A stretch of DNA of 64,000 nucleotides from a virus (taxonomy: Duplodnaviria; Caudoviricetes). The translations under genes were made by a program, and so were the position numbers. The stretch lies in IMG/VR virus record IMGVR_UViG_3300031857_000001, one strand, 5' to 3'. Under the pieces are notes generated by a model. That model saw nothing but the letters and a program-made list of their open reading frames with translations. It did not search any database and had not been told where the DNA came from. Positions 3,934 to 49,382 of the stretch are shown here, in pieces. Numbering within the stretch: position 1 is the stretch's first letter; the number at the start of each line of letters is the position of its first letter.

Positions 3934-3943
3934 GATATTTATA
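3934..3943 (+). promoter_or_regulatory. Putative late promoter GATATTTATA
   Basis: Lies immediately after the terminator, 16 nt before the ATG at 3960. Confidence 0.6.
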
Positions 3944-7134: not shown

Positions 7135-7193
7135 AAAAAAAGGAGGCCACTTAGACCTCCTTTTTTATTTTATAGATATTTATAAAGAAAAAT
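7135..7193 (+). repeat. 59-bp terminator+promoter cassette, copy A
   Basis: 58/59 identical to 11189-11247. Contains an AGGAGG..CCTCCT hairpin, a T-run and GATATTTATA. Confidence 0.9.
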
Positions 7194-11188: not shown

Positions 11189-11247
11189 AAAAAAAGGAGG
11201 TCACTTAGACCTCCTTTTTTATTTTATAGATATTTATAAAGAAAAAT
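11189..11247 (+). repeat. 59-bp terminator+promoter cassette, copy B
   Basis: AGGAGGTC-ACTTA-GACCTCCT hairpin, T-run, GATATTTATAAAGAAAAAT. Confidence 0.9.
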
Positions 11248-17200: not shown

Positions 17201-17299
17201 CCAACACCAACGGCAACATCGGCGTTAGAACCACTTACAATAGTTTACACATTAACCGACCCGAATAATTTCAATTTAAAGGGTGTAATAATAAAATAA
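11279..17299 (+). CDS. Giant (2006 aa) modular putative virion protein: three propeller-like domains, delta-60 repeat propeller, Cys modules, C-terminal Thr/Pro stalk
   Basis: Delta-60-type repeats such as '[11 protein letters not shown]...[14 protein letters not shown]', tandem N-terminal domain duplication, and a TPT-rich tail. Confidence 0.8.
16729..16987 (+). repeat. Perfect direct repeat, 127 bp identical, period 132 bp (44 aa)
   Basis: 16729-16855 equals 16861-16987, encoding [42 protein letters not shown]. Confidence 0.9.
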
Positions 17300-31773: not shown

Positions 31774-32369
31774 TCTGTTATTTGTTTTAATGTTTTTTCG
31801 AATTCTTTTATAGAGCGTATCATATATAAGGAGTCGATGTTTTTATTATATTCGGTTTCGAATTTTATAACTATCTTTTCTTTAGGACACTCTAATAATA
31901 AAGAAGGGTTTGATGTAAGTAAAACATCAACCTCGCTCCACATTGAGCTCATAGTAATATTACTGTAAAATTTAATTTTCTCAACTAAACATCCAAATTT
32001 TGATAGAAAAAATAGAGTTGCCGGTTTTGATTTACTAATTTCATCGGAAACTATTAGTAATTCGTGGTTATCCCTTAAATTAATATAAATCTCATTTAAA
32101 TCATTAAACGTGTTATATTCTGATGATTGAGCGTGACCAAAAATTTCCATTGGAAATTCCTCATATAAAAAAGAATACATTTCATCATCATCTCTAAAAC
32201 TAAAATGTTTTTTAATTTCCAAATCTTCGACAGGATAAGTTATTTCATATTTAAAATCATTTTCATATTCAATACCTTCTGTCTTATCAATCATAAATTT
32301 TTGATAAGTCTGTTCTATTTTGTCCAAAGTATTTCTTAAAACTCCGTTTACCTCAATACCAATTCTCAT
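31767..32369 (-). CDS. HAD-superfamily 5'(3')-nucleotidase-like protein, degenerate motif I
   Basis: 'MRIGIEVNGVLRN' in place of the usual 'IGIDxDGVL'. Confidence 0.5.
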   Translation of the reverse strand: MRIGIEVNGVLRNTLDKIEQTYQKFMIDKTEGIEYENDFKYEITYPVEDLEIKKHFSFRDDDEMYSFLYEEFPMEIFGHAQSSEYNTFNDLNEIYINLRDNHELLIVSDEISKSKPATLFFLSKFGCLVEKIKFYSNITMSSMWSEVDVLLTSNPSLLLECPKEKIVIKFETEYNKNIDSLYMIRSIKEFEKTLKQITEC

Positions 32370-33088
32370 TATTCGTATCTTTTTAGAATTTTACTAATTA
32401 ATGGATTTCTAACAACATCTTTGTTATCGAATTCAAATACACCAACATCAGACAAATCTTTAAATTTTTCTATAGCGTCCCAAAGCCCCGAGTGTCTTTT
32501 ATCTTTATATCTATCAGTTTGTTCTAAATCACCTGAAATAAAAAACTTACTATTGAAACCTATTCTAGTTAATAGTAGTTTCATCTGATTTGGGGTTGAA
32601 TTCTGAGCCTCTTCGAAAATAAGAATTGAGTTGTCTATATTCATACCTCTCATATAGGCTAAAGCGAATACCTCAATTACATCTATTTGTTTTAATTTTT
32701 CACGAGCCTCCTTACCAATAATTTTATTCATTAGATAGTAAGATGGGAAAATGTAAGGGTCTAATTTTTCTTCAACATTACCAGGTAGAGAGCCAAGTTT
32801 TTCTTCGGCCTCAACTGCGGGTCTTACAATTATGATTTTTTCATATGGGGTTAATGGGTCTGATAATAAATCCAAAGCCGCTTTCATTGCGATATAACTT
32901 TTACCAACACCTGCGGGACCAGAACAAATTGTAATTTGATTATTTATTAATAAATCGTAATATTTTTTTTGATTTTCAGATAAAAATTTTTCCTTTGATT
33001 TTTTCTTTATTATTTCAGTGATTTGGTCTTTCCTACTCACATTTTTCTTCGGTTCTTCTTGAACTGAAATAGGTTTTTTTCTTGTCAT
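32369..33088 (-). CDS. phoH: PhoH-family ATPase
   Basis: 'GPAGVGKS', 'LGSLPGNVEEKLDPY', 'YMRG', 'EEAQN', 'LLTRIG', 'GDLEQTD'. Confidence 0.95.
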   Translation of the reverse strand: MTRKKPISVQEEPKKNVSRKDQITEIIKKKSKEKFLSENQKKYYDLLINNQITICSGPAGVGKSYIAMKAALDLLSDPLTPYEKIIIVRPAVEAEEKLGSLPGNVEEKLDPYIFPSYYLMNKIIGKEAREKLKQIDVIEVFALAYMRGMNIDNSILIFEEAQNSTPNQMKLLLTRIGFNSKFFISGDLEQTDRYKDKRHSGLWDAIEKFKDLSDVGVFEFDNKDVVRNPLISKILKRYE

Positions 33089-34062
33089 ATATTAATTTTA
33101 AAATAATTCATCCAATAGTCAATCATCTCGTCTAACATAGATTCGAATGTGTAATCATGTAACCATCCTGTAGATTTAATAAGTTTAGAACTATCTCCTT
33201 TTAAGTCATGTAATTCTTCAGGTCTCAAAAATTTTTCATCTTGTTTTACGTATTTTACCCAATCTAATTCTAGTTTACCAAAAACATATTCACATAATTC
33301 TCTAACTGAATGAGATACACCTGTTGCACACACAAAATCGTCAGGTTTATCTAACTGTAGAATTTCCCACATTGCCTTAACATAATCTTTAGCATGACCC
33401 CAATCCCGGGTGGCTTCCAAATTGCCTAATCTTAATTCATTTGATAGACCTAATTTAATTTTAACCGCTTCTTTACATACTTTATTTGTTACAAAGTTAG
33501 TTCCTCTTCTTGGTGATTCATGATTAAACAAAATACCGTTTGAGATAAACATTCCATAAGAATTACGATAATTCCTACAAATATTATAACTAAAAACTTT
33601 AGCACATCCATATGGTGAAACGGGATTCATCGGTGTGGTTTCCCTTTGAAATCCGTCAGAATCAATAGAATTACCAAACATTTCAGATGAAGATGCTTGA
33701 TATATTTTAGTATCAGGTTTAATTAGTTTAACGGTCTCCAATAAATTTAAAGTCCCTAATCCGGTTACATTTGCGGTATATATTGGTTGGTCAAATGAAA
33801 TTCTAACGTGAGATTGTGCGGCTAAATTGTATATCTCATCCGGCATTATTTTTTGGATGACCCCAACTAAAGAAGACATATCAGTCAAATCTGCGTATTC
33901 TAGCGTTATTTTATTATAGACATTATTTAATCTAGCAGTTTGATTTTCCGCAACGGAATTCCTTTTTAAAATTCCATATACATCATAACCTTTTTCTATT
34001 AAAAATTCGGCCAAGTATGAACCATCTTGACCATTTATACCTGTAATTAATGCTTTTTTCAT
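33085..34062 (-). CDS. gmd: GDP-mannose 4,6-dehydratase
   Basis: 'ALITGINGQDGSYLAE', 'YNLAAQSHV', 'YQASSSEMFG', 'SPYGCAK', 'LFNHESPRRG', 'RDWGHAKDYV'. Confidence 0.95.
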   Translation of the reverse strand: MKKALITGINGQDGSYLAEFLIEKGYDVYGILKRNSVAENQTARLNNVYNKITLEYADLTDMSSLVGVIQKIMPDEIYNLAAQSHVRISFDQPIYTANVTGLGTLNLLETVKLIKPDTKIYQASSSEMFGNSIDSDGFQRETTPMNPVSPYGCAKVFSYNICRNYRNSYGMFISNGILFNHESPRRGTNFVTNKVCKEAVKIKLGLSNELRLGNLEATRDWGHAKDYVKAMWEILQLDKPDDFVCATGVSHSVRELCEYVFGKLELDWVKYVKQDEKFLRPEELHDLKGDSSKLIKSTGWLHDYTFESMLDEMIDYWMNYFKINI

Positions 34063-35213
34063 AAATTTTTATTAACTATTTGAATTACTTTATTAATTTC
34101 ATCATAAGTCATTTGATGATTATTTGGAATATATATACCAAGTTCGTGTACCAATTTTGAGTTAGGCAAATTTTGTTTACCGTATCTTTCATACCAAAAT
34201 GGATGCTCGTTAATCGAACCACAAATTAAGGGCCGACATTCAATATTATTTTTGATTAACTCTTCAGTTAATGATTTGATATTTTTAGTTATAATGGGAA
34301 ATGAAAAATTTGATATAAATGAATTTTCAGGAGGGGAAATGCTCCAAAAAGTATTTTTAATTTCATTTTTATATCTTTCATAATTTTTATTTCTATTAGT
34401 TACAATAATATCTAATTTGTCTAATTGACCTAACCCGATAAAGGCTTGTAAATCTGTTGCTCTTAAATTAAACCCTGGATAATAAAAAGTATAAAGTGAC
34501 CTAAAATCATCAATATCATACTTTTTTCTTAAAGATTCTTGTTTTTCTTTAGGTAAGTCTCTGTCCCATCCGTGTGAACGTATTGATAATAAGATATGAT
34601 ATAAATCTTCATCATCAGTAGATATCATACCTCCCTCAATAGTTGATATATGATGTCCAAAATAAAATGAAAAAGTTGATAGGTCCCCAAAAGTACCCAA
34701 TAATTTATCTTCATATTTTGAGCCCATTGATTCACAAGTATCCTCAATTAACAAAATATTATTTTCTTCACATAATTTAATAATCTCATTCATATGATTT
34801 GGAAAACCTAAGACATGAACCAAAATAATTGCTGATGGACTATCATTTTTAATGATATTTTTTAGATGGTCAATGTCAAGTCCTAAATTATTCATGTCAC
34901 ATTCACACATTATTGGTTCCATACCTAATTGAATTGCTGGCGTGACGGTCGTGACCCAAGAAACCGCAGGAACCACTATTTTTTTATTCTTTAATCTACC
35001 TGATAATATTAAAGAATATATTGCAGCTAAATTAGCTGACGAACCAGAGTTAACAAATACTGAATATTTAACCCCTAACCATTTAGACCATTTTTTTTCA
35101 AACTCCTCAGTTAATTTTCCCTTAGTTAATCTTGGATTTGTCTCTAACCAATAGATTAATTTTTTTATGTCGTCAAAATTGATAGTATCTTTTACTAATG
35201 TAATTTTTTCCAT
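34059..35213 (-). CDS. colD: PLP-dependent GDP-4-keto-6-deoxymannose 3-dehydratase, ColD-like
   Basis: DegT/DnrJ fold with His in place of the Schiff-base Lys ('SFYFGHHISTIEGG'); 'SHGWDRDLP' lacks the E1 Cys cluster. Confidence 0.75.
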   Translation of the reverse strand: MEKITLVKDTINFDDIKKLIYWLETNPRLTKGKLTEEFEKKWSKWLGVKYSVFVNSGSSANLAAIYSLILSGRLKNKKIVVPAVSWVTTVTPAIQLGMEPIMCECDMNNLGLDIDHLKNIIKNDSPSAIILVHVLGFPNHMNEIIKLCEENNILLIEDTCESMGSKYEDKLLGTFGDLSTFSFYFGHHISTIEGGMISTDDEDLYHILLSIRSHGWDRDLPKEKQESLRKKYDIDDFRSLYTFYYPGFNLRATDLQAFIGLGQLDKLDIIVTNRNKNYERYKNEIKNTFWSISPPENSFISNFSFPIITKNIKSLTEELIKNNIECRPLICGSINEHPFWYERYGKQNLPNSKLVHELGIYIPNNHQMTYDEINKVIQIVNKNL

Positions 35214-35214
35214 A

Positions 35215-36141
35215 TTATTTTCTTATATTTTTATAATTTTCCTGAAACCATTTAACTGTTTTTTCTATACCATCTGATAAATCCGTAAATTCAAAATTTT
35301 CCGGTACATTAGATATTGCTGGCTTACGATATTGACCCATTGGTTTAGTATTATCGAAAATTATGTTATTAAAATCTATATCTAATTTATTACATATTAT
35401 TTTAGCAATTTCTAATATAGAATGTTCTTGTTTATTAATTGCCATAAATGGTTCATCACTTTTCCAATTATCGAGTGACCACATTATTAGCCTTGCCAAA
35501 TCTTCCGAATATATTACTTGACGTAAAGGACTACCATCTCCCCATATTACCATTTTTTCAGAGTTTTGTTTAGATAAATGAGCCCTATGTATCATAGCTG
35601 GAATCATGTGACCATCATCTAAATGAAAATTATCATTTATTCCATAAACATTTGTAGGGACAACAGATACCCAATTAGCGTTTAATACTTTTTTAATAAT
35701 ATTTGTCTGATAACCAGATAATCTTTTCGCATATGAATACCCATGATTTGAAAAGTGAGGAGGTCCTTGGTCAATTTGATTAGGGGTCAACGGAAATGTT
35801 ATGTTTTTATCAGGAAAAATACACGTTGATAATAAATTAACAAAATTAGGTATTTCATTTTTAAAACATGACTCAATAATATTATTATTGATAATAAAGT
35901 TATCAATAAAAAAACCTTTATTATTTTTCATATTGGCTTGAACTCCTCCGACCTTAGCCGCACAATGTATTACAGTGTCAATATTATTATGTTTAACATG
36001 ATATGTTATATAATCAATTGTTTTTTTATTATCTAGAAGATTTATATCTTCTTTTGTGTGATAGATTTGATTATCACCTAATATTTTTTTTAAAGCAGAC
36101 CCTACCAATCCGTTAGAACCTGTCACTAAAATTTTATTCAT
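35215..36141 (-). CDS. fcl: GDP-L-fucose/GDP-L-colitose synthase (epimerase/reductase, Fcl/ColC family)
   Basis: 'VTGSNGLVG', 'AAKVGGVQAN', 'LSTCIFP', 'YSYAK', 'PTNVYG.NDNF', 'WGDGSPLRQ'. Confidence 0.9.
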   Translation of the reverse strand: MNKILVTGSNGLVGSALKKILGDNQIYHTKEDINLLDNKKTIDYITYHVKHNNIDTVIHCAAKVGGVQANMKNNKGFFIDNFIINNNIIESCFKNEIPNFVNLLSTCIFPDKNITFPLTPNQIDQGPPHFSNHGYSYAKRLSGYQTNIIKKVLNANWVSVVPTNVYGINDNFHLDDGHMIPAMIHRAHLSKQNSEKMVIWGDGSPLRQVIYSEDLARLIMWSLDNWKSDEPFMAINKQEHSILEIAKIICNKLDIDFNNIIFDNTKPMGQYRKPAISNVPENFEFTDLSDGIEKTVKWFQENYKNIRK

Positions 36142-36923
36142 AATTTAATCCAATTTTCGCATCCTATTTCTGAAGTATCTAAAAACTGAACTCCAAACCA
36201 GTTAGATGGATATATTACTTTTTTATTATCATTATTATTTAACCAAGCTCCCCACCAACTAAAACTTGAGTTCGCAATTATATTATTCTTACACATTGAC
36301 ATTAGATATAAATCTTGATAGTCTATGTTTCCATTAATAAACGTTTTATTTTTAATAAACCCTAAATTTTCTTTACACCAATCAATGTCGTCAGAAAAAA
36401 TTAAGTAGTCCAAATCCTCACCAATTTTTGACACGGATTCTTTATAATAGTTTATAGTTTGTACCGGGTGAAAATGAGATTTTTGAACATAATTACCACG
36501 TCTAACATGTAGTGAACAAGTGTTTCCAGATAGAACATCTGAATATTTCATAGTAATAAATTCATATGTTTCAGAGTCAATCTCAAATAAATTTAAAATA
36601 TCTTGTCTTAAATTTTTAAAATATTTTTCATTTTGATAATAACCTTTTAATTTTAGATTATTTTTAGGGTTTGGTATTTCAGAATATTGTATGGGTTGAA
36701 TCGGTTCATGAGACGAATAGTTTGAGTACTCTGAAACAAATTTTATTTTTCTAAATATATTATTATAGTATAAATCAATTGGGCTATGAATTATAGATAT
36801 ATCCGAAATATCAACAACCATTTCTCTATTATCTCTAATTGATGTGTAATATGAAGCCGCTATTTGAAATATGTAGTTTCCTAACCCCCCTTTTAATTGA
36901 GGAGACACCAATAATTTTTCCAT
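36138..36923 (-). CDS. GT11 alpha-1,2-fucosyl/colitosyl-transferase
   Basis: 'GGLGNYIFQ', 'LHVRRGNY', 'IIANSSFSWWGAWL'. Confidence 0.92.
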   Translation of the reverse strand: MEKLLVSPQLKGGLGNYIFQIAASYYTSIRDNREMVVDISDISIIHSPIDLYYNNIFRKIKFVSEYSNYSSHEPIQPIQYSEIPNPKNNLKLKGYYQNEKYFKNLRQDILNLFEIDSETYEFITMKYSDVLSGNTCSLHVRRGNYVQKSHFHPVQTINYYKESVSKIGEDLDYLIFSDDIDWCKENLGFIKNKTFINGNIDYQDLYLMSMCKNNIIANSSFSWWGAWLNNNDNKKVIYPSNWFGVQFLDTSEIGCENWIKL

Positions 36924-36925
36924 AA

Positions 36926-37267
36926 TTAAAATCCCTTATAATATTTAACAGAATCTTCAATCAATGATTTATTAGTTAATATAGAATTCTCAATCATACG
37001 GTTTACCGCTTGTACATATTTAGGTCTTTTAACTTTAAAACAAATATCAATTTTACGTTTTAAATCGGCAATTTCCGAATCATTTTCCGCAACACTGATA
37101 GAGTCCTCAAGATACCACATGCGACAATGTAAAATAGCCAATTTTTCAATCACCTCTCCTATATTGTCAGTTTCAATTAAATCATCAGGAATGGTAACAT
37201 TTTTACTATTAGTTAGTATCTGATTTACTTTATTTTTAATAATTTCTTCAATTCTCTCTCCAATCAT
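36926..37267 (-). CDS. Small helical protein, DUF4254-like
   Basis: 'EKLAILHCRMWYLED...LKRKID'. Confidence 0.5.
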   Translation of the reverse strand: MIGERIEEIIKNKVNQILTNSKNVTIPDDLIETDNIGEVIEKLAILHCRMWYLEDSISVAENDSEIADLKRKIDICFKVKRPKYVQAVNRMIENSILTNKSLIEDSVKYYKGF

Positions 37268-37268
37268 T

Positions 37269-37931
37269 TTAATATATTGTTATAAATTTATTTTTACCTT
37301 GGCTATTCAATGATTCGTTGTAACCTCTGATATATTGGTGATAATAAAATGAAGGTTTTTCAAAAACATAAGAATTAATCAAACACTTAATACTTGATTC
37401 CATTATGTGTACCTCCTTTGAATTTTCAATTATTTTAAGAATATCAAAAATTCCAAATTCAATTGGATTTTCAATTATTTTTAAATCGGTTCTAATTTTA
37501 TTTTTATCCACTTTACCGTGAACAAAAATGTATTCTTCATTGTTTGGATTAACATAATTAAAGGCGTCGTCTTCTTTATTAGGGTCTCTTAAAAATAAAA
37601 ATTTAGAAAAACGATATTCAAATGGCATTTCTGATATTTTATAAAATGCCTCATCAAACTTTGTCATCGGGAATTTCATTAATTTATCAAATCCAATCTT
37701 AATTACGTCATATTGAATATTATTTTCAATAATATATCTGTTAACTTCCCAGTCTTCACCGACAGGTAATACTTTAATATCTTCGTCATCTCGGTACATA
37801 TATTTGACATTTTCATAGTTATGTGGTTTACAAAAAACTATCACTTTACCATAAATTTCTTTATAATGTCTGACCATACCATTACATATTATATGGTCAC
37901 CTAATCCTAAATGGTGATAAATATATTTCAT
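37269..37931 (-). CDS. Putative glycosyltransferase-like protein
   Basis: N-terminal 'HHLGLGDHIICNG' resembles the GT-B GxGD motif; located inside the sugar operon. Confidence 0.5.
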   Translation of the reverse strand: MKYIYHHLGLGDHIICNGMVRHYKEIYGKVIVFCKPHNYENVKYMYRDDEDIKVLPVGEDWEVNRYIIENNIQYDVIKIGFDKLMKFPMTKFDEAFYKISEMPFEYRFSKFLFLRDPNKEDDAFNYVNPNNEEYIFVHGKVDKNKIRTDLKIIENPIEFGIFDILKIIENSKEVHIMESSIKCLINSYVFEKPSFYYHQYIRGYNESLNSQGKNKFITIY

Positions 37932-38554
37932 TGTGCCCTGCTAAATAAATTATTCATGTCATTTATAGTTTTTATATAATGAAAAGTAATATAATTTGAA
38001 GTATCGTCAACAGGGATATTATAAAAACTAGGTGGTTGAGAATTAAAAAAATTATAGTCAATTGATTTTATACCTAATTCTCTTAATAATAAACCTAGTG
38101 TAACATCTGAATAACCTGTGTTTAAAATTTTTAAGTGTCTAGTTATTTTGTGTAATAATTCTGTGTGTATTAGATATCCCGCCCCTCCTGAACAATAATT
38201 AAGACTTTTATCAACAGACCAAGTACCATTAAGAACTGAGCCGTGAACTGAATCTTTATCCAAAAGGTCCACAAAATTTTCTAATTTTTTAGTATTAACA
38301 AATGTATCATCATCACAAAAGAAAAACCATTCATAATCTTTTACATTATTTGAGACATAATGTAAAACATTAATATGTTTATCTTCATTTGAATGATAAT
38401 CTTTTCTATCCGATACCTTAATTATGTTTTTTTCAGTATCTTCGTGGTCAGAATAGAACAAACAATTAACATCTTTACCCCAAGTTTTTTTAACATTAAA
38501 ATATCTATCAGGATTCATAGACCCATGTAATAATACATATAATATCTTTTTCAT
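37928..38554 (-). CDS. GT31 Fringe/C1GALT1-like beta-1,3-glycosyltransferase
   Basis: 'WFFFCDDDTFVN', 'YCSGGAGYLI', 'SDVTLG', 'ITFHY'. Confidence 0.8.
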   Translation of the reverse strand: MKKILYVLLHGSMNPDRYFNVKKTWGKDVNCLFYSDHEDTEKNIIKVSDRKDYHSNEDKHINVLHYVSNNVKDYEWFFFCDDDTFVNTKKLENFVDLLDKDSVHGSVLNGTWSVDKSLNYCSGGAGYLIHTELLHKITRHLKILNTGYSDVTLGLLLRELGIKSIDYNFFNSQPPSFYNIPVDDTSNYITFHYIKTINDMNNLFSRAQ

Positions 38555-39210
38555 ATTACCGACAAATAATCTTGACCGACAGGTTTATCAAACTCATCAA
38601 TTCTATCCCCAATAAATCTACCCATTTCTCTTTTAATCGGAAAAGGTTTTTTTTCAAAAAATTCATCATGGGTAATTTTATCATTTTCAAATAAAGAAAA
38701 AACAGTTTTTAGAAAAGTTTGGTCTGAACCGTATGATAAATTTTTATTTTTTACAAAATCGTTTATCATATCAGTTATAGATATAAAACCTTTTTTAATT
38801 CCCCACATTCCCCCTAAAATACCTAATCTATCACTCCCGAAAGGAATTCCATGGGCAGGATGGTCTCTCATAACATGTAAAGATTTTCCACTATTAATCC
38901 ATTCATCAACCGCCATTTTTTCTCTAACAGTTATTCTTGAATCGGCATCTCTAAAAACACAATATTCTGAGTCAGGTAAGTCTATTGCAAAAAATCTCCA
39001 AAACATCCCATAAAGTTTTTTTTCGGTTACATCGATTGTTAAAACTCCCAAATCGTTTAATTTATTTATAGTTTCTTTTGGTACTGTATTATCATAATAA
39101 ACGACCATTTGCCAATCTGAATATATGGTTTTCCATAATTCGGCATTTCTAATTGCCCCAACATTATATATGGGTTTATCCCCCCATAAACTAAAACTCA
39201 AATATTTCAT
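38551..39210 (-). CDS. Putative GT-A fold glycosyltransferase of an uncharacterised family
   Basis: 'SFSLWG', 'MFWRF', DxD in 'RDADSR', 'MRDHP.H', 'LGGMWG', 'DQTFL'. Confidence 0.55.
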   Translation of the reverse strand: MKYLSFSLWGDKPIYNVGAIRNAELWKTIYSDWQMVVYYDNTVPKETINKLNDLGVLTIDVTEKKLYGMFWRFFAIDLPDSEYCVFRDADSRITVREKMAVDEWINSGKSLHVMRDHPAHGIPFGSDRLGILGGMWGIKKGFISITDMINDFVKNKNLSYGSDQTFLKTVFSLFENDKITHDEFFEKKPFPIKREMGRFIGDRIDEFDKPVGQDYLSVI

Positions 39211-40625
39211 TAATTCTCAACTAATTCTTTTATATTTTTATCAAAATCAACATAATGGTCTTGAGTTCCATGTGAATTCATTTGATAATGCTTTATTAAC
39301 CCTTGAGTAATAAACGGATTATGTTTGTACATTAAACAATAAAAAGTTGTAGACCTTTCGTGTCCGTGACCTGCTGTTTTAGAGTGTTTAATTAATTCCG
39401 ACAGAGGTTCAAACCACTTCATATAATCATTAAAAAATGATACTTTCATAGTACAATTACTAGTGGTAGACCAAACCAACTTAGGGTTTTGTCTCATATA
39501 AAACCTAATTGTTTTTTCAAGGTCGACTTTATAAACCTGTTTGATTGCTCCAAATAATTCCTCAACCCAATTTTTATTATCTATAAAATGATAATTCGAA
39601 CAAGGGAATGGTATGTAACCAATCATATTTTGATTTTCATACATAAATTTATCTATGATTTGTTCTAAATTTTTATTTAAAATAACATCATACTCAAATA
39701 GATTTACATATGGAGTTTTTATTAGGTTGTTTTTCCACAACGCATACCATCCTGTGTATGCATTTATATTTGGATACTCCTCTAAATTATATGGTAAATT
39801 ACGAGCAATAATAATATTTGAATTATCCTCTATTTTATCAACAGGTCTATTACCTAAAAAGACATATCTATATTTTTTTAAATTACTAAATTTACCTGAT
39901 TTTTCGTAATCAATTATAATATCTTGGTCGTGACAAAATATGAAAGTTTCACAAACATTATTGTTAGTAATATCTAAAGGTAAATTATTTTTAAATTTTT
40001 CTGAGAAAAATATTCGATTATTTTCCCATGTATCATTTGTCATACCAACAGATAAGTGAGTAACCCTAACATCTGTAACAATTCCTATTTTAACACCATC
40101 TAAATAATTTGGAACACAAAACGACAAATCGTAAAAATGGAATCCATCGAATTCCTCATCAAATTTGTGTTTGATTTTTGTTTTATCCAAAACCATAAAT
40201 AATCCATCAATCAATACAACCTCTTCAACATTACTAATTGCTTTTGAATAAGTACTAGTCCATTTTTTTCCTTCATGTTTATGGTTTACAATACCATACA
40301 TTGTTTGAGATACTTCCCACCATTTACCTGATTCAGGTAAGTATTTAGAACCCGCGAGACCAATTACACCAAATTCAGGACTCTTATTAAAATGTTTTAT
40401 TATTTTTTTACCCCAATTATCCGTATCAAATTCTAAATCATCGTGACACAACACTACAATGTCATGTTGTGATTTTTCTAAAATTTCATTATAAGTTTTA
40501 GGTAGGGATTTTTCACCATTATTAACAACTTCAATAATTTCAACATTTTTCAATCCACAAGATTTTTTCAATATTTCAACATATTGTGGATTTGAGTTTC
40601 TTGTACTATATCCTATTGTAATCAT
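39210..40625 (-). CDS. Two-domain glycosyltransferase (Glyco_tranf_2_5-like plus a second GT-A-like domain)
   Basis: 'VLCHDDLEF', 'VIGLAG', 'IDGLFM', 'FHFYDLSFC'; second domain 'YTGWYALWKN...LFEYDV'. Confidence 0.75.
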   Translation of the reverse strand: MITIGYSTRNSNPQYVEILKKSCGLKNVEIIEVVNNGEKSLPKTYNEILEKSQHDIVVLCHDDLEFDTDNWGKKIIKHFNKSPEFGVIGLAGSKYLPESGKWWEVSQTMYGIVNHKHEGKKWTSTYSKAISNVEEVVLIDGLFMVLDKTKIKHKFDEEFDGFHFYDLSFCVPNYLDGVKIGIVTDVRVTHLSVGMTNDTWENNRIFFSEKFKNNLPLDITNNNVCETFIFCHDQDIIIDYEKSGKFSNLKKYRYVFLGNRPVDKIEDNSNIIIARNLPYNLEEYPNINAYTGWYALWKNNLIKTPYVNLFEYDVILNKNLEQIIDKFMYENQNMIGYIPFPCSNYHFIDNKNWVEELFGAIKQVYKVDLEKTIRFYMRQNPKLVWSTTSNCTMKVSFFNDYMKWFEPLSELIKHSKTAGHGHERSTTFYCLMYKHNPFITQGLIKHYQMNSHGTQDHYVDFDKNIKELVEN

Positions 40626-41218
40626 ATCCCTGTACTCCCAAAACCGTTATTACCTCTATCCTTGTTTATTTCTTCTTTGGTTTCTTGTAAATTGACCCAT
40701 TTTCCGTTAACGACTGGACACAAAACTGCTTGACCTATTTTTGTATCTTTATTTATTGTGTACGCATAACTATTTGTATTGAAAATAATAACTTGTATCT
40801 CACCGGTATATCCATTATCAACAGTTCCAGGGGAATTCATAACAAATAAACCTTGGTTTATCGCCAAACCACTTTTAGACCTAACTTGTATTTCATACCC
40901 ATCTTTAATATCGAATGATAAACCCGTTCTAACTAAACCCCTACCCAAAGGTTGAATAGTTGTGTCCTCCGTTGCGTATAAATCAAATCCAGAATCGGAT
41001 GGATAGTTGTAAAAAGGGTCCTTTGCCTCAGGGCGTAACTTCTTATAATTTAAAGTTATCTTTGGGGTATAATTCAAGATATCATTTTCAAGTTCCTTAA
41101 CATCAACCCCCGTAACTTTTAAAATCTCATCATAATCAAAATCATAACTGTTATCGGAAAGTAATTCTTTAATTTTTTCCGATTCTTCTTTTGACATTCC
41201 AAAAAAGTCTAAACTCAT
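40622..41218 (-). CDS. dut: Trimeric dUTPase with acidic N-terminal extension
   Basis: 'SGFDL', 'RSKSGLA', 'GTVDNGYTGEI', 'RGNNGFGSTG'. Confidence 0.95.
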   Translation of the reverse strand: MSLDFFGMSKEESEKIKELLSDNSYDFDYDEILKVTGVDVKELENDILNYTPKITLNYKKLRPEAKDPFYNYPSDSGFDLYATEDTTIQPLGRGLVRTGLSFDIKDGYEIQVRSKSGLAINQGLFVMNSPGTVDNGYTGEIQVIIFNTNSYAYTINKDTKIGQAVLCPVVNGKWVNLQETKEEINKDRGNNGFGSTGI

Positions 41219-41943
41219 TTTAATTCTTTTAATTTTTTTATTATATCAATCAAAACTTGAACATCACGTTCACAATATTCACTTATTTCTTTTAATTTTC
41301 TATCAATCCAATATGAATCATGAACCATATCTCCTGTTATCTCACCTTCTTTTGATGTTGGTATGTCCATACAAGAACAAAGCAAATCTAATGACCCTAT
41401 TGAACTATACGCCCCATATTGCCAAATTTCCTTGGTATCGATTGCCTTAATCTCCCAAGGCTTTGTGTCATATGAAGGTAGAATTGATGGGGGCATTAGA
41501 CCATTGATAATCATACGTTTGGCTAACATGGGTATATCAAAATTTTTAAGATTATGACCACATAAGTGAAAATCCAATTTACCACATCTGTCCAATAATT
41601 TTTGAACATCCTTTAGTAACTCTAACTCATCGTCACCTGAAAATGTTTGCATTTTCGTTTCACCCTTGTCTGTAACAAATGCAACACTAACACAAACAAT
41701 CTTTGAAAATTCTGGAACTAACGCGGCTCTTTTTGCAAATATTTTATCTCGTTTTTTTTCCTCCTGTTCTATATTACTTACCGTATTATCATCTTCAGGA
41801 AATCTTTTTAAAAACCAATCATAGTAATTTATAAATTGAGTTGCCACTTTAGGATTTAATGCCTGACATGTAGTGAAATCAGGACATCCCCCAACCGTTT
41901 CAATATCAATGAATAATATTTTGGTGATAGGGATTTTTATCAT
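41215..41943 (-). CDS. DEDDy 3'-5' exonuclease (PolB-exo-like)
   Basis: 'FIDIETV', 'GHNLKNFDIP', 'EYCERDV'. Confidence 0.88.
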   Translation of the reverse strand: MIKIPITKILFIDIETVGGCPDFTTCQALNPKVATQFINYYDWFLKRFPEDDNTVSNIEQEEKKRDKIFAKRAALVPEFSKIVCVSVAFVTDKGETKMQTFSGDDELELLKDVQKLLDRCGKLDFHLCGHNLKNFDIPMLAKRMIINGLMPPSILPSYDTKPWEIKAIDTKEIWQYGAYSSIGSLDLLCSCMDIPTSKEGEITGDMVHDSYWIDRKLKEISEYCERDVQVLIDIIKKLKELK

Positions 41944-43160
41944 TGTACCAAAGTTTTATACCATTCAGCTCTATTTTTTGTAACGTTTCTCAAATCATAA
42001 GTGTCCTTTACAGTTTCATAAAGTCGTTCACCCATGTCGGTAATCATACTTGGATTTTGAATGAGTTTCTTAATGTACTTAGACCAATCACTATGATTTT
42101 TATGTTCATCAACAAGTAAAGCGTTTCCATCAACAAAGTTACCATTTTTCAAACAATGTTTCAAATCTATGGTATATGGTCCAATCTCAGAAGCAATAAG
42201 TGCCTTTTTATAAAAACCCGCTTCGATAACCTTAAGTTGAGATTTCATTCTATTAAAGATATGGTTTTTGATTGGGGCCAACGAAATGTCCAACTTAGAG
42301 TAGTTCATTGCGTATGTAGTTACAGGTTTTGTCCAAACTCTACGATATGGTAAACTAGTTTCATTTGGGAATTCAACATCTTTAAATTCCATCAAAAATT
42401 TCTTATACTCGTCACCAACAATTTCGTACTTGTTTGTGAAAATTTCTTCATATCTAACCCAAACAGTTTCGTGAGGAAGAATATCTCTACGTTTTTCTTC
42501 TCCTGTTTTTGGATTAATTTCGGTCATTGTACCACGAGTATCAAACCCACAAATAACATACTGAACTTTATCATTTATTTCTTTCCCATTTTTCTCAACC
42601 ATTCCATCCAATAACATTAAATCATGGAGGTGTGAGGAACCACCTAGCCATCCTACTCTAATTCTTTCGGATTCTAATGTTGGTTGTCTGAATTGAGGTT
42701 CACTTGGGTCAATGGCATTTGGGAAAATAATAACATTTTTGTTTATTTTCTTGATTTCATCGGCAAAAATTGTTGTTGTGGTTGTTACGTAACTAGCCTC
42801 ACGTAGATTGGCAACAATCTTTTCGTTCAATTTATGATTAACAATTAACTGATGAATTGGATGTTCCTTTGTAGGTAACCAATAATCGTCAATATCCACA
42901 ACAACGATAATACCTAATGATTTAAGTTGTCGGATGAGTTGGGGTACAATATCGTAGTTTTGTCCTATACTTCTGTGAGCGTGAACTATTTGGTATTGTT
43001 TCCAATAATTTACATCGTTTATTCTTGGTTCATAATCTATATCAACATGAAAATCATCAGGATATAGATTTTGTAACATGACATGAGGGTCCAATGACCT
43101 AAATTTACCAACACCTGTTCTATCCGATGGTAGAACTAAAACATTAATTTTTTCTTTCAT
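41940..43160 (-). CDS. GT-B (GT4-like) glycosyltransferase
   Basis: 'VVVDIDDYW', 'RVGWLGGSSH', 'DISLAP...FNRMKSQLKVIEAG'. ATG at 43160 is preferred over the TTG at 43208. Confidence 0.8.
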   Translation of the reverse strand: MKEKINVLVLPSDRTGVGKFRSLDPHVMLQNLYPDDFHVDIDYEPRINDVNYWKQYQIVHAHRSIGQNYDIVPQLIRQLKSLGIIVVVDIDDYWLPTKEHPIHQLIVNHKLNEKIVANLREASYVTTTTTIFADEIKKINKNVIIFPNAIDPSEPQFRQPTLESERIRVGWLGGSSHLHDLMLLDGMVEKNGKEINDKVQYVICGFDTRGTMTEINPKTGEEKRRDILPHETVWVRYEEIFTNKYEIVGDEYKKFLMEFKDVEFPNETSLPYRRVWTKPVTTYAMNYSKLDISLAPIKNHIFNRMKSQLKVIEAGFYKKALIASEIGPYTIDLKHCLKNGNFVDGNALLVDEHKNHSDWSKYIKKLIQNPSMITDMGERLYETVKDTYDLRNVTKNRAEWYKTLVQ

Positions 43161-43219
43161 AATTAAAAATAATAATGAAAGTATACGACGAAAATTACAT
43201 TTTATCAACTATGATAAAT

Positions 43220-43246
43220 AAAAAAACCCCCACATTTGTGAGGGTT
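43220..43246 (-). terminator. Rho-independent terminator, followed by TATTTAT (43214-43220)
   Basis: On the minus strand AACCCTCAC-AAAT-GTGGGGGTT-TTTTT. The single non-WC pair is a U-G wobble only in this orientation. Confidence 0.8.
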
Positions 43247-43251
43247 AAAGA

Positions 43252-43839
43252 TTACTGTATTTTTTTCACTTTCGTGACTTTTCCTTCGAATATATGTTTC
43301 CCTACTTTAAATGAAAATACATCGTTAGTTTTCGAAACAGATTCCGTTATCATACCATTTTCAGATAATACTTCTTGAACAACTTCTTTAAGTAGACTTC
43401 TAAGATTTTGATTATCAAGGATATTTTCTCTATGAGAGGTTGTTTCTTTAACCACGCCTTTACCTTGATATCCGTTCCCGTCTGAACCTAAACTCATAAG
43501 ACGAGCCGCTTTATCAACAAGTTCGTTTGATAATGTTGGTCCGCCCATGTTGTTTGGTTGAGAAATTGGATGTTCAATCATTAATTTTTTAATTTCATCG
43601 GGCAATTTTGATGATAAAATCTTATCTTGTGTTACGGGTTGTTGTGGTTTTGGCTGGTATGTACTTTCTTGTACTAAATCCTGTGGTAAGTTATATTTGG
43701 CCGATGGGGCGTCATATGATTCTACCATCGGAGTGTTAACGTCAGGTAAAGCGTCCGCTCTACGTGGGATTGTATTGTGTTTTTCCATTATCTTTTTGGA
43801 AATCATCAATTTTTGTATTAAGTCGTTCTCGTTTGTCAT
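43252..43839 (-). CDS. Hypothetical protein
   Basis: 195-aa ORF in a co-directional run. Confidence 0.7.
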   Translation of the reverse strand: MTNENDLIQKLMISKKIMEKHNTIPRRADALPDVNTPMVESYDAPSAKYNLPQDLVQESTYQPKPQQPVTQDKILSSKLPDEIKKLMIEHPISQPNNMGGPTLSNELVDKAARLMSLGSDGNGYQGKGVVKETTSHRENILDNQNLRSLLKEVVQEVLSENGMITESVSKTNDVFSFKVGKHIFEGKVTKVKKIQ

Positions 43840-45894: not shown

Positions 45895-48800
45895 ATGGCG
45901 GGTCAGAATATTAATCAATACGTTTACCCAAATTTAAATCCGAAGTTAGCGTTAGAGAGTTATGATATGTCCTTAACCTCAGATGAGAAAGGATTTAATA
46001 TGGAGGTGATATTTTCTCCGTATTTGATTGCTCAAACATATGGTAACAGACTTCCATTCTATTTCGATATTAATAGTTCAATAACTAACCAAAAATTTAC
46101 ATTAAATTATAAAGAATATAACAGAAATAATATTTTTGTTTCTGAAAATTATTATAACATAAATAATGAGGATTTAACTTGTTATTCGGCTCAGACATCT
46201 TGTGATATTGGGTTAACGGGTATCGACAATGGACTCGTTACGGGAATGACAGGATATTCGATTACATTTACAAAGGGTTTATTCTCAGACGGATTAAAAT
46301 TTGAGAGATTATATTTTGATAGGAGATTAAAGTTATTTCAAGTAACCGCCAATACCAACTCACCAAATATTAGATTTTCAGGATTTCCAAATACTGTTTT
46401 ATATGAAGTTGTAAGTAAATACGGTCAAACCGAAGGATTATATCACGAATTATATGGTGGTTTTTATCAAGGTTTTTATCGTTTATTTGGGTATGATTAT
46501 GATATTTTTCCTGAAAGAGTAAACAAGGGTTGGACAGTTGAATTATTATTAAGGCCAAGATTAATAAGTGAATATTTTCCAGGACCAGGTGAAACTACAT
46601 TAAATTTATTATATCCCGAAAATGCTAATACATTTTTCTATTTGGGAACAAGAGCTGAAAATAAATTTTACCACCACGCTGACGGAACTCCAAATTGTTT
46701 TACAGGATATACTAGATTTACTTCACCATTGACGGGAATATCGACTTGTGCTTGTTGTAACAGAACCGTAACAAATAGTAGGTGTATATATGTTTATCCA
46801 CCACGTTCTAAAGACGGAGTTCATGATACTCATGTTAATTATGGATGTGATAAGTGCGGTTCGGATAAAATGGTACAGGCAACGTGTGGATGTGGTTGTG
46901 ATAAAATAGCGTGTGCCACATGTGGGTGGGAATGTCAAATTCATGAATGCGCGGTTATTGTCGAAGTTACTCCAACTCCCACCCCAACACCAACCGCAAC
47001 TTTAAGTAACTGTATATTACCTCCAGTTTGTACACCGACATGTAATTCATGTTCAAATTGTACTGATTGTGTTGATTGTGTTTATACAGGATTTTCGTCA
47101 ATTGAAAATACTTGTGAGGTTGACCCAAAAATGGATGTGTTATCAAACAACATTTCATTTAGACTTTGTGGAGACCCTAAAAATCCGGGTATTGGAATAA
47201 GAGCAATTAAATTCACAGGTGGATGTGAAACAACGGGTTCTTGTGAAACTTCAGGAATTACATACACCACAGGTTATACAGTACTAGATTATTGTACTCC
47301 GCCAATTTATGAATACTGTGAAAGTATTAATTATCCGTTCATTGAACAAGAACACTGGTTCCAACTCGATGCGGTTTGGGAAAGATATACATGGTTAGAT
47401 ACATGTGATTTATGGTATAGAGGTGGATTAGGAGATATTACAAAAAAAGTATATTTAGAATCACTGGCAAATAATACAGTTTCTTTAATTGATACGTCAT
47501 ATACAAGGATGGACCCAAAGTCCACTTTGGAAATTGATATTGTAAGTTTAAACGAAAAGTGGTTACTCGAAGAAAATTTTAGAAAAGGTAGATTGAAAAT
47601 CTATATTAACGGTAAACTGTTTTATACCATTGAGGATTTTGAAGAGATAATTCCTAGAGCCCTTAATACCGATAAGGAAAAACAGGTCGGAGTTCCGTTT
47701 AACGTATCATGGGGTGGTGGAACACAAGGATTGAGGGAAAATTTAACATTTAACCCTAAGCCCGCTTGTGACATTGTATTTGGTGTTGAGATTGGTTTGT
47801 TATTAATAGGGTTGATTAGTCCAGGTTCTATAAACGCACAATACACATTAACAACTGGTTTACCTTACAAGGACGAAATACAGGTGAATTTTAGAAATAT
47901 CCTTAATAAAAAAGATGGTGGTCACTATGAAATTGATAGTAAAGTGATTATACCACCTTTTGGAATTTCCGGTGTTACATACGAAACATTAAATGAGAAT
48001 TTTGATGATTTGGATGGAACCGGATATTATCTAAATGTTGAAGTATTTCCAAAAACAATTATATCAAATTTTGAGGTGGATTCTAATATAATATTCCTAT
48101 CACCAACCCCAACACCAACTCCACCAGTCACCCCAACAATAACACCATCGCAAACTGAAACCCCTCAACCAACACCTACTCAGACCGAGACACCTCAACC
48201 AACACCTACAAATACCGAAACTCCTACACCAACACCAACCCCAACATTTACCCCAACTCCTGAACAAACAATAACTGATGCGATAATAACTAGTGAAATT
48301 GAATATATTTCAGTTGATGGATTATTCTATTTAAAATTTGTTGACCCCGAACAAGCAATAAACGATGCAATAATTGTTAATGGAAATGAATATATATCTG
48401 TTGGAGAAAACTTATATCTAAGTTTTGTTGACCCGATTATTACCACCCCAACACCTACTCCAACTAACACCAATACACCTACTCCAACTCCGACTTCTAC
48501 TATAACTCAAACACCTACTCCTACACCTACAATATCGGTTATTTGTGATACATTTACATTTACAGGTAATAATGCCACTATAACTGTAAACAGTGCAATT
48601 AAAACATCAAACGGTGGATGGGATGGCTCTGCATACTCGGTAGAATCTTATACTTCTCCTGTATCAGTATCATTCCAAGTTTCAAGTAGTAATTTATATT
48701 TGATGGGAGGATTTTCATATAATCCAAACGCAAATCCTGGTGACACATATGTGGACATTTCTTATGGACTTTATATCCAACCTAACTTCTTGGAAATATA

Positions 48801-49353
48801 TGAAAATGGAACTCAGGTTACAGTTCCAGGTGAGATGACAAATACAACGTCAGATGTGTGGAAAGTAGATTATAATGGAACGGATGTGAAATATTATAAA
48901 AACGGCGGTTTAATTTATACATCATCTAATGCGGTCACACAACCATTACATATTTATTTCCCTCTTTTAACTTTTAATGAAGGTGTTACTAATGTTTGTG
49001 TTATTGGGGACCCATTACCGTCACCTACACCAACACAGACTAACACTCAAACTCAAACTCCAACTACAACAATAACACCAACCCCAACAAAAACACCAAA
49101 TTGTGTTCGTCAAATAGTTGTTCCGACATTATGGAATGGAGCAACTAGTATAAACAGCAATACACTTCAACTAACTCAGACTTCAGAAACTTTACAAATA
49201 CAAGTGAATGATGTTATAACAGATAATATTGGGGCGACAAGTTTTGTTGGAATTGTATCTTCAGACGGAACTTATACATACGTATTTACAGGACCTGGTG
49301 GTGGGGTCGCATTTGATTGTGATTTCCCATTAACATTTTCAGGAACTTGTTAA
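45895..49353 (+). CDS. Large putative virion protein: interrupted LamG-like domain, 22-Cys cluster, Thr/Pro stalks, C-terminal beta modules
   Basis: 'GWTVELLLRPR', 'LKIYINGK', 'FNVSWGGGTQG' are LamG-like elements; the terminal LamG strands are absent. Confidence 0.7.
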   Translation: MAGQNINQYVYPNLNPKLALESYDMSLTSDEKGFNMEVIFSPYLIAQTYGNRLPFYFDINSSITNQKFTLNYKEYNRNNIFVSENYYNINNEDLTCYSAQTSCDIGLTGIDNGLVTGMTGYSITFTKGLFSDGLKFERLYFDRRLKLFQVTANTNSPNIRFSGFPNTVLYEVVSKYGQTEGLYHELYGGFYQGFYRLFGYDYDIFPERVNKGWTVELLLRPRLISEYFPGPGETTLNLLYPENANTFFYLGTRAENKFYHHADGTPNCFTGYTRFTSPLTGISTCACCNRTVTNSRCIYVYPPRSKDGVHDTHVNYGCDKCGSDKMVQATCGCGCDKIACATCGWECQIHECAVIVEVTPTPTPTPTATLSNCILPPVCTPTCNSCSNCTDCVDCVYTGFSSIENTCEVDPKMDVLSNNISFRLCGDPKNPGIGIRAIKFTGGCETTGSCETSGITYTTGYTVLDYCTPPIYEYCESINYPFIEQEHWFQLDAVWERYTWLDTCDLWYRGGLGDITKKVYLESLANNTVSLIDTSYTRMDPKSTLEIDIVSLNEKWLLEENFRKGRLKIYINGKLFYTIEDFEEIIPRALNTDKEKQVGVPFNVSWGGGTQGLRENLTFNPKPACDIVFGVEIGLLLIGLISPGSINAQYTLTTGLPYKDEIQVNFRNILNKKDGGHYEIDSKVIIPPFGISGVTYETLNENFDDLDGTGYYLNVEVFPKTIISNFEVDSNIIFLSPTPTPTPPVTPTITPSQTETPQPTPTQTETPQPTPTNTETPTPTPTPTFTPTPEQTITDAIITSEIEYISVDGLFYLKFVDPEQAINDAIIVNGNEYISVGENLYLSFVDPIITTPTPTPTNTNTPTPTPTSTITQTPTPTPTISVICDTFTFTGNNATITVNSAIKTSNGGWDGSAYSVESYTSPVSVSFQVSSSNLYLMGGFSYNPNANPGDTYVDISYGLYIQPNFLEIYENGTQVTVPGEMTNTTSDVWKVDYNGTDVKYYKNGGLIYTSSNAVTQPLHIYFPLLTFNEGVTNVCVIGDPLPSPTPTQTNTQTQTPTTTITPTPTKTPNCVRQIVVPTLWNGATSINSNTLQLTQTSETLQIQVNDVITDNIGATSFVGIVSSDGTYTYVFTGPGGGVAFDCDFPLTFSGTC

Positions 49354-49372
49354 AACAACATAATAAACTAAT

Positions 49373-49382
49373 GATATTTATA
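49373..49382 (+). promoter_or_regulatory. Putative late promoter GATATTTATA
   Basis: 11 nt upstream of the ATG at 49394. Confidence 0.6.

Follow-up and report, generated by a model that had tools for sequence, protein, structure and literature searches.

A GT31 glycosyltransferase gene in a tailed phage

We analysed a 64,000-nucleotide stretch (the window) of the IMG/VR virus record IMGVR_UViG_3300031857_000001, assigned to the Caudoviricetes (Duplodnaviria), and in particular the gene at positions 37928–38554 on the minus strand. An earlier reading of the letters, made without database searches (the sequence-only reading), had proposed that this gene encodes a soluble, eukaryote-style enzyme of glycosyltransferase family 31 (GT31), the family of Fringe and core-1 synthase (C1GALT1), with a protein as its likely acceptor. 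The open reading frame (ORF) starts with ATG and encodes 208 amino acids (aa), as that reading had it. All of the hallmark blocks that it listed are present (W76-FFFC-D81-D82-D83-T-F-V86, Y120-C-S-G-G-A-G-Y127, S149-D150-V-T-L-G154 and F191-H192-Y193), although three residues, and not two, separate the WF pair from the DDD triplet. The protein contains no hydrophobic segment (maximum Kyte–Doolittle mean over 19 residues, 0.66), in line with the proposed lack of a transmembrane anchor, and the first strand of its AlphaFold2 (AF2) model begins at residue 2. ATGA overlaps join the gene to a neighbour on both sides: upstream to the gene of a 219-aa glycosyltransferase of the GT-A fold (38551–39210, minus strand; hereafter the partner), and downstream to a 220-aa ORF (37269–37931, minus strand).

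By every feature tested, the 208-aa protein is a genuine GT31 enzyme. The Pfam Fringe family (PF02434) matched it with an E-value (E) of 1.9e-12 (47.6 bits; cut-off 21), the match spanning positions 22–235 of the profile, that is, 214 of 250, and Galactosyl_T (PF01762) matched with E 2.5e-7 (31.1 bits; cut-off 23). This Pfam comparison, which the sequence-only reading had named as its check, places the family match far above chance level; PHROG and NCBIfam searches returned no family for the protein. When the family profile was compared with solved GT31 chains, the stronger matches ranged from E 6e-15 to 1e-6 and included B3GLCT (PDB 12em; E 6e-15), C1GalT1 (PDB 7q4i; E 5.8e-14), CHSY3 (E 4e-9) and B3GNT2 (E 9e-7), followed by GfsA (E 5e-4) and Manic Fringe (E 3e-3, 20.4 bits), the weakest GT31 match by sequence.

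The predicted structure agreed with these assignments. With the AF2 model (pLDDT 95, pTM 0.92) as query, Foldseek ranks 1–38 in the PDB were held by GT31 enzymes only (E 8e-14 to 9e-8), with TMq values of 0.71–0.80 for all but GfsA (8yrl; 0.66). The closest folds, at a TMq of about 0.8, were those of B3GNT2, B3GalT5, C1GalT1 and CHSY3; GfsA, Manic Fringe and B3GalT6 gave 0.66–0.75, and Manic Fringe came last among the GT31 matches. The first structure from outside the family was the solved, capsid-glycosylating chlorovirus enzyme A64R (PBCV-1 A064R, PDB 2p6w).

The ORF is a real, conserved gene. A word-indexed search scored 236 homologues, and among the 120 listed nearly all are about 205–215 aa long and metagenomic; some of the homologues come from contigs of 257–328 kb. 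HMMER comparison with 1.84 billion cluster representatives gave 760 matches at E ≤ 1e-3, with 208 of these at E ≤ 1e-10.

Catalytic residues of the phage enzyme

Four landmarks of the GT-A active site have been defined and mutationally proven in Drosophila C1GalT1 (DmC1GalT1): the DxD motif (Asp181/183), a glycine-rich loop, the base Asp255 in an xED motif and a C-terminal His324–Tyr325 pair (PMC9065035). We found a counterpart of each in the phage protein and, across a 30-sequence alignment of its relatives (49–82% identity; 34 invariant columns), D81-D82-D83, S122, G124-A125-G126, D150-V151, G154 and H192-Y193 did not vary. The DxD motif for metal and UDP corresponds to codons D81-D82-D83 (38306–38314, minus strand) and to Asp181-x-Asp183 of DmC1GalT1. 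The glycine-rich loop, codons S122-G-G-A-G126 (38177–38191, minus strand), pairs with the SGGAGY of C1GalT1 in the hidden Markov model (HMM) alignment to 7q4i; its one variable position, G123, is kept in at least 90% of the rows. For the predicted catalytic base D150 (38105–38107, minus strand), which lies in an xED-type motif reading 'SDV', the phage 'YSDVTLG' pairs with 'AEDVEIG' of 7q4i, where the Asp is chain position 183, or residue 255. The C-terminal metal-binding His and its Tyr neighbour, H192-Y193 (37976–37981, minus strand), correspond to His324/Tyr325 of DmC1GalT1, and H192 aligns with the His of 'SFHK' in B3GLCT by HMM alignment, not by structural superposition. Just before the loop, the aromatic residue Y120 aligns with DmC1GalT1 Tyr218, a GalNAc-contacting residue critical for recognition and catalysis (PMC9065035). 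The kinship to C1GalT1 (profile E 6e-14, identity about 21%) was read from an alignment outside which the Trp300 region fell. Because these landmarks are invariant and the profile and fold matches agree with them, the protein is very probably active, a prediction from its intact catalytic set.

The source genome is a T4-like jumbo phage

The bacteriophage setting proposed by the sequence-only reading held. The ORF at 2–358 of the window matches a major head protein (phrog_138, E 1.5e-17), of which it encodes the C-terminal part, and the window also encodes PhoH, a phage-type exonuclease (phrog_25228) and glycosyltransferases of the phage families phrog_2644 and phrog_7162. IMG/VR contigs as long as 316 kb share the gene order of a 17-kb minus-strand block around the GT31 gene, with protein identities of 35–85%. 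Among them, four records of collinear relatives of 295–316 kb encode a T4-type Gp23 (E about 1e-64). An exonuclease-based search for the lineage in IMG/VR returned 397 relatives; deposited phage records held no DNA nearly identical to the window.

The GT31 gene and its partner lie in a hypervariable glycan island

The partner (38551–39210) matched nothing in Pfam, PHROG or NCBIfam. Its AF2 model (pLDDT 89) shows a GT-A domain, for which Foldseek returned glycogenin-type GT8 enzymes (E 1.5e-8) and TarP (E 2e-6), and a weak profile match was seen with PBCV-1 A64R (E 0.021). An R-D-x-D-x-R motif is invariant in the partner alignment. A partner homologue is present in 37 of the 47 GT31 loci collected from IMG/VR, mostly directly 5′ of GT31, and a freshwater Synechococcus phage (S-SRM01) and an uncultured phage of 735 kb also have homologues. 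Judging by the ATGA overlap, the GT31 gene is translationally coupled to its partner. Within the jumbo-phage lineage analysed here, GT31 always occurs as part of this two-enzyme cassette.

These two genes sit between conserved flanks, all on the minus strand. The left anchor is a gene for a GT2-type transferase (39210–40625; Glyco_tranf_2_5, Pfam E 9e-32; hereafter GT2_5) with a 270-aa C-terminal part that has no assignment; it is found in 22 of the 47 loci and in GT31-positive and GT31-negative relatives. Beyond it lie genes for a dUTPase, a 3′–5′ exonuclease and the phrog_7162 glycosyltransferase (40622–43208), which are collinear in all relatives examined. On the right, PhoH (32369–33088; Pfam E 4.2e-63) is 71–95% identical in relatives and is followed by further conserved genes. 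Between the flanks, the ORF downstream of GT31 (37269–37931; 17 of 47 loci) encodes a virus-specific protein with an N-terminal HHLGLGDH motif and no family match. Its relatives in the protein atlas are 83–100% viral, and its fold resembles DUF6165 proteins of nucleocytoplasmic large DNA viruses, some of which are fused to GNAT acetyltransferases; a weak lead to GT9 was also seen. Next come a 113-aa variable member (36926–37267; five of 47 loci; unmatched in Pfam, PHROG and NCBIfam) and a GT11 transferase of the alpha-1,2-fucosyl/colitosyl type (36138–36923; PF01531 E 4.7e-28, phrog_2644 E 2.9e-55; seven of 47 loci). The remaining genes, at 33085–36141, encode a GDP-mannose 4,6-dehydratase (GMD), a DegT-type aminotransferase and an epimerase/reductase (Pfam E 9e-116, 9.5e-73 and 2.7e-37), and this GDP-6-deoxyhexose supply is patchy, with GMD in 24, DegT in 7 and the epimerase/reductase in 15 of the 47 loci. 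The idea that GT31 and GT11 together make an H-antigen-like disaccharide is weakened by the few loci in which GT11 stands beside GT31.

In GT31-negative relatives, the corresponding span measures 5–13 kb between the conserved flanks (the phrog_7162 glycosyltransferase, exonuclease, dUTPase and GT2_5 on one side, PhoH and the genes beyond it on the other). The GT31 gene scored strongly in the long records G001–G004, G423, G424 and G428, whereas no GT31 gene was detected in six nearly complete relatives, namely G407 (100% complete, terminal repeats present) and G408–G412 (89–99% complete), where the span is filled with other glycan genes. G407, for example, has a GT25 gene, two GT11 genes and FAD-type and GFO-type oxidoreductases; G410 has two GT2 genes together with GNAT, a DegT-type aminotransferase, a BKACE enzyme and a hexapeptide acetyltransferase; and G412 has a NodZ-like protein. 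Comparison of window positions 33085–39210 (minus strand) with loci L134–L137 likewise showed that close relatives, whose exonucleases are 71–80% identical, hold wholly different gene sets. Because relatives share the flanks yet replace GT31 by other glycan genes, the stretch between GT2_5 and PhoH is a hypervariable island of glycan-synthesis genes, in which GT31 and its partner form one cassette that can be exchanged. The island proteins contain no membrane segment, the island enzymes have isoelectric points of 5.8–6.3, and the island encodes no flippase (Wzx), polymerase (Wzy), ligase (WaaL) or initiating phosphoglycosyl-transferase.

As to regulation, the T4 late-promoter motif TATAAATA occurs 17 times in the window against 15.4 expected, which is not above chance. 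On the plus strand, its reverse complement, TATTTATA, lies 4–40 nucleotides upstream of six late-side genes of that strand (437–444, 925–932, 3936–3943, 7177–7184, 11231–11238 and 49375–49382), and no copy in the corresponding orientation was found within the minus-strand glycan block (about 29.6–45.8 kb). This placement of a late-promoter-like motif at late genes, with no copy in the right orientation in the island, is suggestive only. Scans for sigma-70 promoters and terminators did not rise above shuffled expectation. A strong terminator-like hairpin of nine pairs followed by a T-run lies at 43225–43246 (minus strand), between the ORF at 43252–43839 and the phrog_7162 glycosyltransferase gene; its position suggests the start of a transcription unit that would run through the exonuclease, the dUTPase and the glycan island.

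Two further ORFs of this minus-strand region deserve mention. The dUTPase (40622–41218), flanked by two glycosyltransferase genes, has about 65 additional N-terminal aa that match no family. A conserved 250-aa ORF at 28887–29639 matches aminoglycoside phosphotransferases (E 2e-4) and extracytoplasmic function (ECF) sigma factors (E 2.5e-3) weakly, and could possibly encode a sugar kinase or a regulator.

A virus-restricted, anchor-free branch of GT31

With eukaryotic GT31 enzymes, the phage protein shares the GT-A fold with its DxD motif, the glycine-rich loop, the xED-type Asp base and the C-terminal His-Tyr. It differs from them in being a bare 208-aa core in an operon-like array and a cytoplasmic setting, without signal anchor, stem or lumenal surroundings; the type II topology of the eukaryotic Golgi/ER-type enzymes, with an N-terminal anchor and stem, is not seen in it. 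Sequence identity to the solved eukaryotic enzymes is 14–21%, and the score on the Pfam model is modest. An N-terminal anchor is also absent from 149 of its 150 nearest cluster representatives, most of which are 200–250 aa long; the lone exception is a mayfly protein of 1067 aa (P0221; 29% identity), which is also the sole identified eukaryotic match. Transferases of prokaryotes and viruses normally have no anchor. In the protein atlas, the nearest clusters (with 452, 71, 54, 83 and 67 members) are 98–100% viral and are labelled mostly Uroviricota, one of them Nucleocytoviricota. The 'eukaryote-style' label of the sequence-only reading is not supported.

Outside viruses, relatives are rare. 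A pattern scan of 185,579 species found a single one, in a metagenome-assembled genome of the Bacteroidetes. There, a 3071-aa ORF (JAKAGV010000001.1, locus L049, 7242–16457, plus strand) joins one GT4 and five GT2 domains, TPR repeats and a methyltransferase to a Fringe-like domain (residues about 252–470). No other bacterial relative of the phage protein was found, and no grouping with bacterial lipopolysaccharide (LPS) or capsule transferases, part of the outcome that the sequence-only reading had said would count against it, was seen. Profile and PF02434 searches of 401 Bacteroidota genomes matched only G005, which supplied the lone bacterial locus and around which the sample was drawn, so that it is not an independent sample; the 400 other genomes gave no match, nor did 14 control genomes. 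Among 50,697 deposited phage records, tblastn gave no match at a threshold of 1e-5 and, at E ≤ 1, one weak match (LR745206, E 2e-4).

A FastTree phylogeny of 181 domains placed the window protein in a 36-member clade with support of 97. This clade includes a contig labelled 'GVMAG' (L019), which retains the phage-type partner gene, and the bacterial Fringe-like domain nests among viral and metagenomic sequences. The tree holds no eukaryotic reference, the mayfly protein not being aligned over at least 150 profile positions, and so it gives no position for the clade with respect to the GT31 subfamilies of eukaryotes. Searches of viral protein models by fold gave pithovirus and cedratvirus Fringe-like proteins as the best matches; automatically annotated Fringe-like domains came from pithoviruses, cedratviruses, an elephant herpesvirus and one uncultured 'Myoviridae sp.'. 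Because identity to eukaryotic enzymes is low, the clade anchor-free and the nearest clusters 98–100% viral, the clade appears to be a long-standing viral branch of GT31 and not a recent eukaryotic import. Its closest kinship is with C1GalT1 and B3GLCT, yet remote; the protein is neither a Fringe orthologue, as it showed no close kinship to Fringe proper (E 0.003 and the last fold rank), nor a membrane-anchored form.

Some viral GT31 domains occur in fusions (L039/L040, 9260–11506, plus strand; P0277, P0278 and P0156). These comprise a 748-aa protein with a central Fringe domain, a Fringe domain with a methyltransferase (PF04989/PF13578), a GT10 fucosyltransferase with a Fringe domain, and a Fringe domain with Glyco_trans_1_2; a search for longer, named relatives returned four fusion proteins only and no named eukaryotic enzyme. 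Fusion to GT10, GT1-like and methyltransferase domains would fit a multi-step glycan pathway. In some relatives, a divergent GT31 paralogue also lies about 23 kb away from the main copy (133 bits versus 312 bits; G001:C1:67906-68568, G004:C1:4774-5436 and G423:C1:64381-65043), whereas the window has a single copy.

Proposed activity of the enzyme

By analogy with its solved relatives, the protein would be a soluble, Mn-type metal-dependent, inverting enzyme that takes a UDP-sugar from the host pool. Asp81/Asp83 and His192, together with a divalent cation, would bind the sugar nucleotide, and Asp150 would serve as the base, with the sugar added to a hydroxyl of another sugar, typically in a beta-1,3 bond. 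UDP-sugar donor, inversion and the joining of sugar onto sugar are presumably held in common with eukaryotic GT31 enzymes. Because all of the solved relatives (B3GLCT, C1GalT1, B3GNT2, B3GalT5/6, CHSY3, GfsA and Manic Fringe) add sugar to sugar, the GT31 step probably extends a chain and does not start it. The partner, co-made through the ATGA overlap, would most likely supply or prepare the GT31 acceptor. Donor class, linkage and the order of these steps are all drawn from such comparisons. We consider the enzyme and cassette part of this explanation very likely to be correct.

The carrier of the glycan is a separate question. Solved GT31 enzymes act on proteins, lipids, glycosaminoglycans and cell-wall glycans. 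Because the family extends a sugar on such varied carriers, membership does not name the carrier, and the step from GT31 to a protein acceptor taken in the sequence-only reading does not follow.

Phage-made proteins as the leading candidate carrier

Our leading guess is that the glycan is carried by phage-made (virion or late) proteins and is assembled in the cytoplasm by soluble enzymes that the phage itself encodes, as chloroviruses, mimiviruses and mycobacteriophages would suggest. We rank this carrier slightly ahead of the host envelope, with DNA third, and hold the whole explanation, carrier included, only tentatively. An acceptor specific to viruses is favoured by the restriction of GT31, the partner and the 220-aa neighbour to viruses, those of eukaryotes included.

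Candidate acceptors are at hand in the window. Mucin-like (P/K/Q/R/N)-T repeats of 25–200 aa occur in at least nine large proteins encoded on the plus-strand late side: Thr-rich stalk proteins at 7200–11174, 11279–17299, 45895–49353, 52939–56232, 56238–58016, 58033–60051 and 60063–63998, and shorter Thr-rich runs within 1553–3880 and 49394–51940. TPTPTPT-coding matches number 13 in the window, with none expected.

Several observations weigh against phage-made proteins as the carrier. The stalks are lineage-wide and independent of GT31, with 9–37 TPTPTPT-coding matches per GT31-negative genome and 7–23 per GT31-positive genome, and among 11 GT31-positive records of other lineages (fragments, 11–77% complete) only one has them. 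The island runs in the direction of early-type genes (dUTPase, exonuclease and PhoH) and not in that of the structural genes. In addition, its families (GT25, GT8-like, GT11, DegT and acetyltransferases) are typical of bacterial LPS and O-antigen loci too. A specific link between GT31 and the stalks is thus not supported; other cassettes could serve the stalks elsewhere.

A narrower version of the same idea would be a cytoplasmic, mucin-type O-glycosylation pathway of the lineage's own, acting on the (xT)n stalks of late or virion proteins. In such a pathway, an initiating GT-A enzyme would add the first sugar, GT31 would extend it in the manner of core-1 synthase and GT11 would cap the chain with a 6-deoxyhexose. 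If so, swaps of island cassettes would give virion 'glyco-serotypes' among close phages. We regard this version as improbable.

Alternative carriers and functions

The strongest alternative to phage-made proteins is a glycolipid of the host envelope. Here, glycans on lipid A-core or undecaprenyl would be lengthened by the soluble phage transferases on the cytoplasmic side of the inner membrane, and host export would then display the altered glycan, which could block superinfection or the re-adsorption of progeny to infected cells and debris. The content of the island resembles that of an O-antigen or lipooligosaccharide (LOS) locus, with GDP-6-deoxyhexose genes, GT11, the GT25 of G407, the GT8-like partner and acetyltransferases. 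Its hypervariability between conserved flanks mirrors bacterial surface-glycan loci and could track the diversity of host acceptors, and its early-type orientation would suit this carrier as well. Extension of the LPS core is stepwise and needs no phage-encoded flippase. On the other hand, GT31, the partner and the 220-aa protein belong to virus-restricted families that do not look like recent host captures, and relatives occur in viruses of eukaryotes, where LPS is absent. The enzymes are also acidic to neutral and lack membrane-binding segments, a weak point against membrane work, and we know of no lytic jumbo phage shown to alter a host envelope glycan in this way. We consider a host-envelope carrier unlikely, although it is the alternative that survives best.

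Decoration of DNA would place the sugar chain on a hydroxylated or hydroxymethylated pyrimidine, where GT31 and its neighbours would extend it and so protect the genome against nucleases of the host. Genes for dUTPase and exonuclease lie next to the island, and the fold matches of the partner include GT8 and TarP. In known phages, GT-A enzymes related to the base-J glucosyltransferase (JGT) and secondary transferases of the GT8-like kind make varied glycans on 5-hydroxymethylcytosine, and their genes adjoin DNA-metabolism genes, epimerases and further glycosyltransferases (bioRxiv 10.1101/2023.12.21.572611). GREB1/JGT/TAGT domains have also been termed 'Fringe-like' (PMC7968844). However, the known DNA-glycan routes each begin from a thymidylate-synthase homologue, ThyX or TET/JBP, according to these papers, and glycosylated 5-hydroxycytosine too begins from a ThyA homologue (PMC13326640). 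The 98%-complete relative G001, which has the same GT2_5/GT-A/GT31 module, gave no match to PF00303 (thymidylate synthase), PF02511 (ThyX) or PF12851 (TET/JBP), the last of these in a search run without a positive control; a weak 2-oxoglutarate-oxygenase-like ORF of the window likewise has no Tet_JBP match. Furthermore, the GT31 protein matches true GT31 enzymes and not folds of the TarP/JGT type, and Pfam gives it no GREB1- or TAGT-type family. DNA is thus a very unlikely carrier.

Less probable again is an origin of the gene in eukaryotes, as an orthologue of Fringe or core-1 synthase whose product would extend GalNAc-Thr or Fuc-Thr on a protein as in the O-glycan pathways of animals. The alignment of residue 120 with the GalNAc-contacting Tyr of DmC1GalT1, the nearby GT11 and GDP-6-deoxyhexose genes and the Thr-rich stalks in the same genome would all fit such an origin. 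It is opposed by the identity of only about 20% to eukaryotic enzymes and the weak match to Manic Fringe, and by the virus-restricted distribution of the clade and its lack of a type II anchor. The window showed neither a GT27 polypeptide GalNAc-transferase nor a protein O-fucosyltransferase, no more than seven of the 47 GT31 loci contain GT11, and the stalks do not co-vary with GT31.

Finally, a catalytically dead scaffold or chaperone for the neighbouring transferase, as Cosmc is for C1GalT1, would fit the tight coupling to the partner and has a precedent in the family, but Cosmc lacks the DxD and xED motifs (PMC7185993) whereas here the DxD motif, the glycine-rich loop, the catalytic Asp and the C-terminal His do not vary, and this reading is highly improbable.

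Comparison with known glycosylation systems

Among known systems, the glycosylation machineries of the chlorovirus PBCV-1, of mimivirus fibrils and of pithoviruses and cedratviruses come close, since they too combine soluble GT-A glycosyltransferases with sugar-nucleotide pathways of their own. These are viruses that infect eukaryotes, with a documented or presumed target on the virion; the present case differs in being a tailed phage. For a protein acceptor in a phage, the precedent is virion glycosylation in mycobacteriophages, whose glycosyltransferases modify their own capsid and tail proteins (Freeman et al. 2023, as cited in PMC12619734). Transferase families and hosts differ there.

Phage DNA-glycan enzymes of the GT-A type share the motif pattern R...DDD...(E/S)D and the arrangement of successive glycosyltransferases beside DNA-metabolism genes (bioRxiv 10.1101/2023.12.21.572611). 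They differ in resembling TarP/JGT and in needing a hydroxymethylase or TET, neither of which was found in G001.

O-antigen and LOS loci, such as those of the colitose type in E. coli O55, and the 'LPS-like' clusters of T4-like cyanophages have the same mosaic of GDP-6-deoxyhexose, GT11 and GT-A genes, and resemble the phage island in being hypervariable between conserved flanks. By contrast with bacterial LPS and capsule loci, the phage island is without Wzx, Wzy, WaaL, an initiating transferase or a membrane protein, and its nearest relatives are viral. The bacterial enzymes that make the beta-1,3-Gal linkage of the C1GalT1 type, such as WbwC, belong to GT2 and not to GT31 (PMC4202792). Large freshwater phages of Bacteroidota with core glycosyltransferases have been described as 'moraphages', for which membership of the same lineage is not established (PMC12619734).

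Significance

GT31 is best known from the glycan pathways of animals and plants. The gene described here points to a compact, virus-restricted and anchor-free branch of the family that is widespread in uncultured tailed phages, with 236 close homologues, atlas clusters of 50–450 members and 48 viral loci; full-text literature searches turned up neither a paper on phage enzymes of the GT31 or Fringe-like kind nor a discussion of such a branch. Its 208-aa protein offers a minimal GT31 core for structural and enzymological work. That the family is present in phages is a modest surprise, and the structure of the island and the target of its glycan are of more interest. The island suggests that phages have an equivalent of the strain-specific glycan loci known in bacteria and giant viruses, and it marks diversifying selection acting on a glycan that the phage makes, whichever its target. 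It also raises a testable question, namely, whether these phages glycosylate themselves, the surface of their host or neither.

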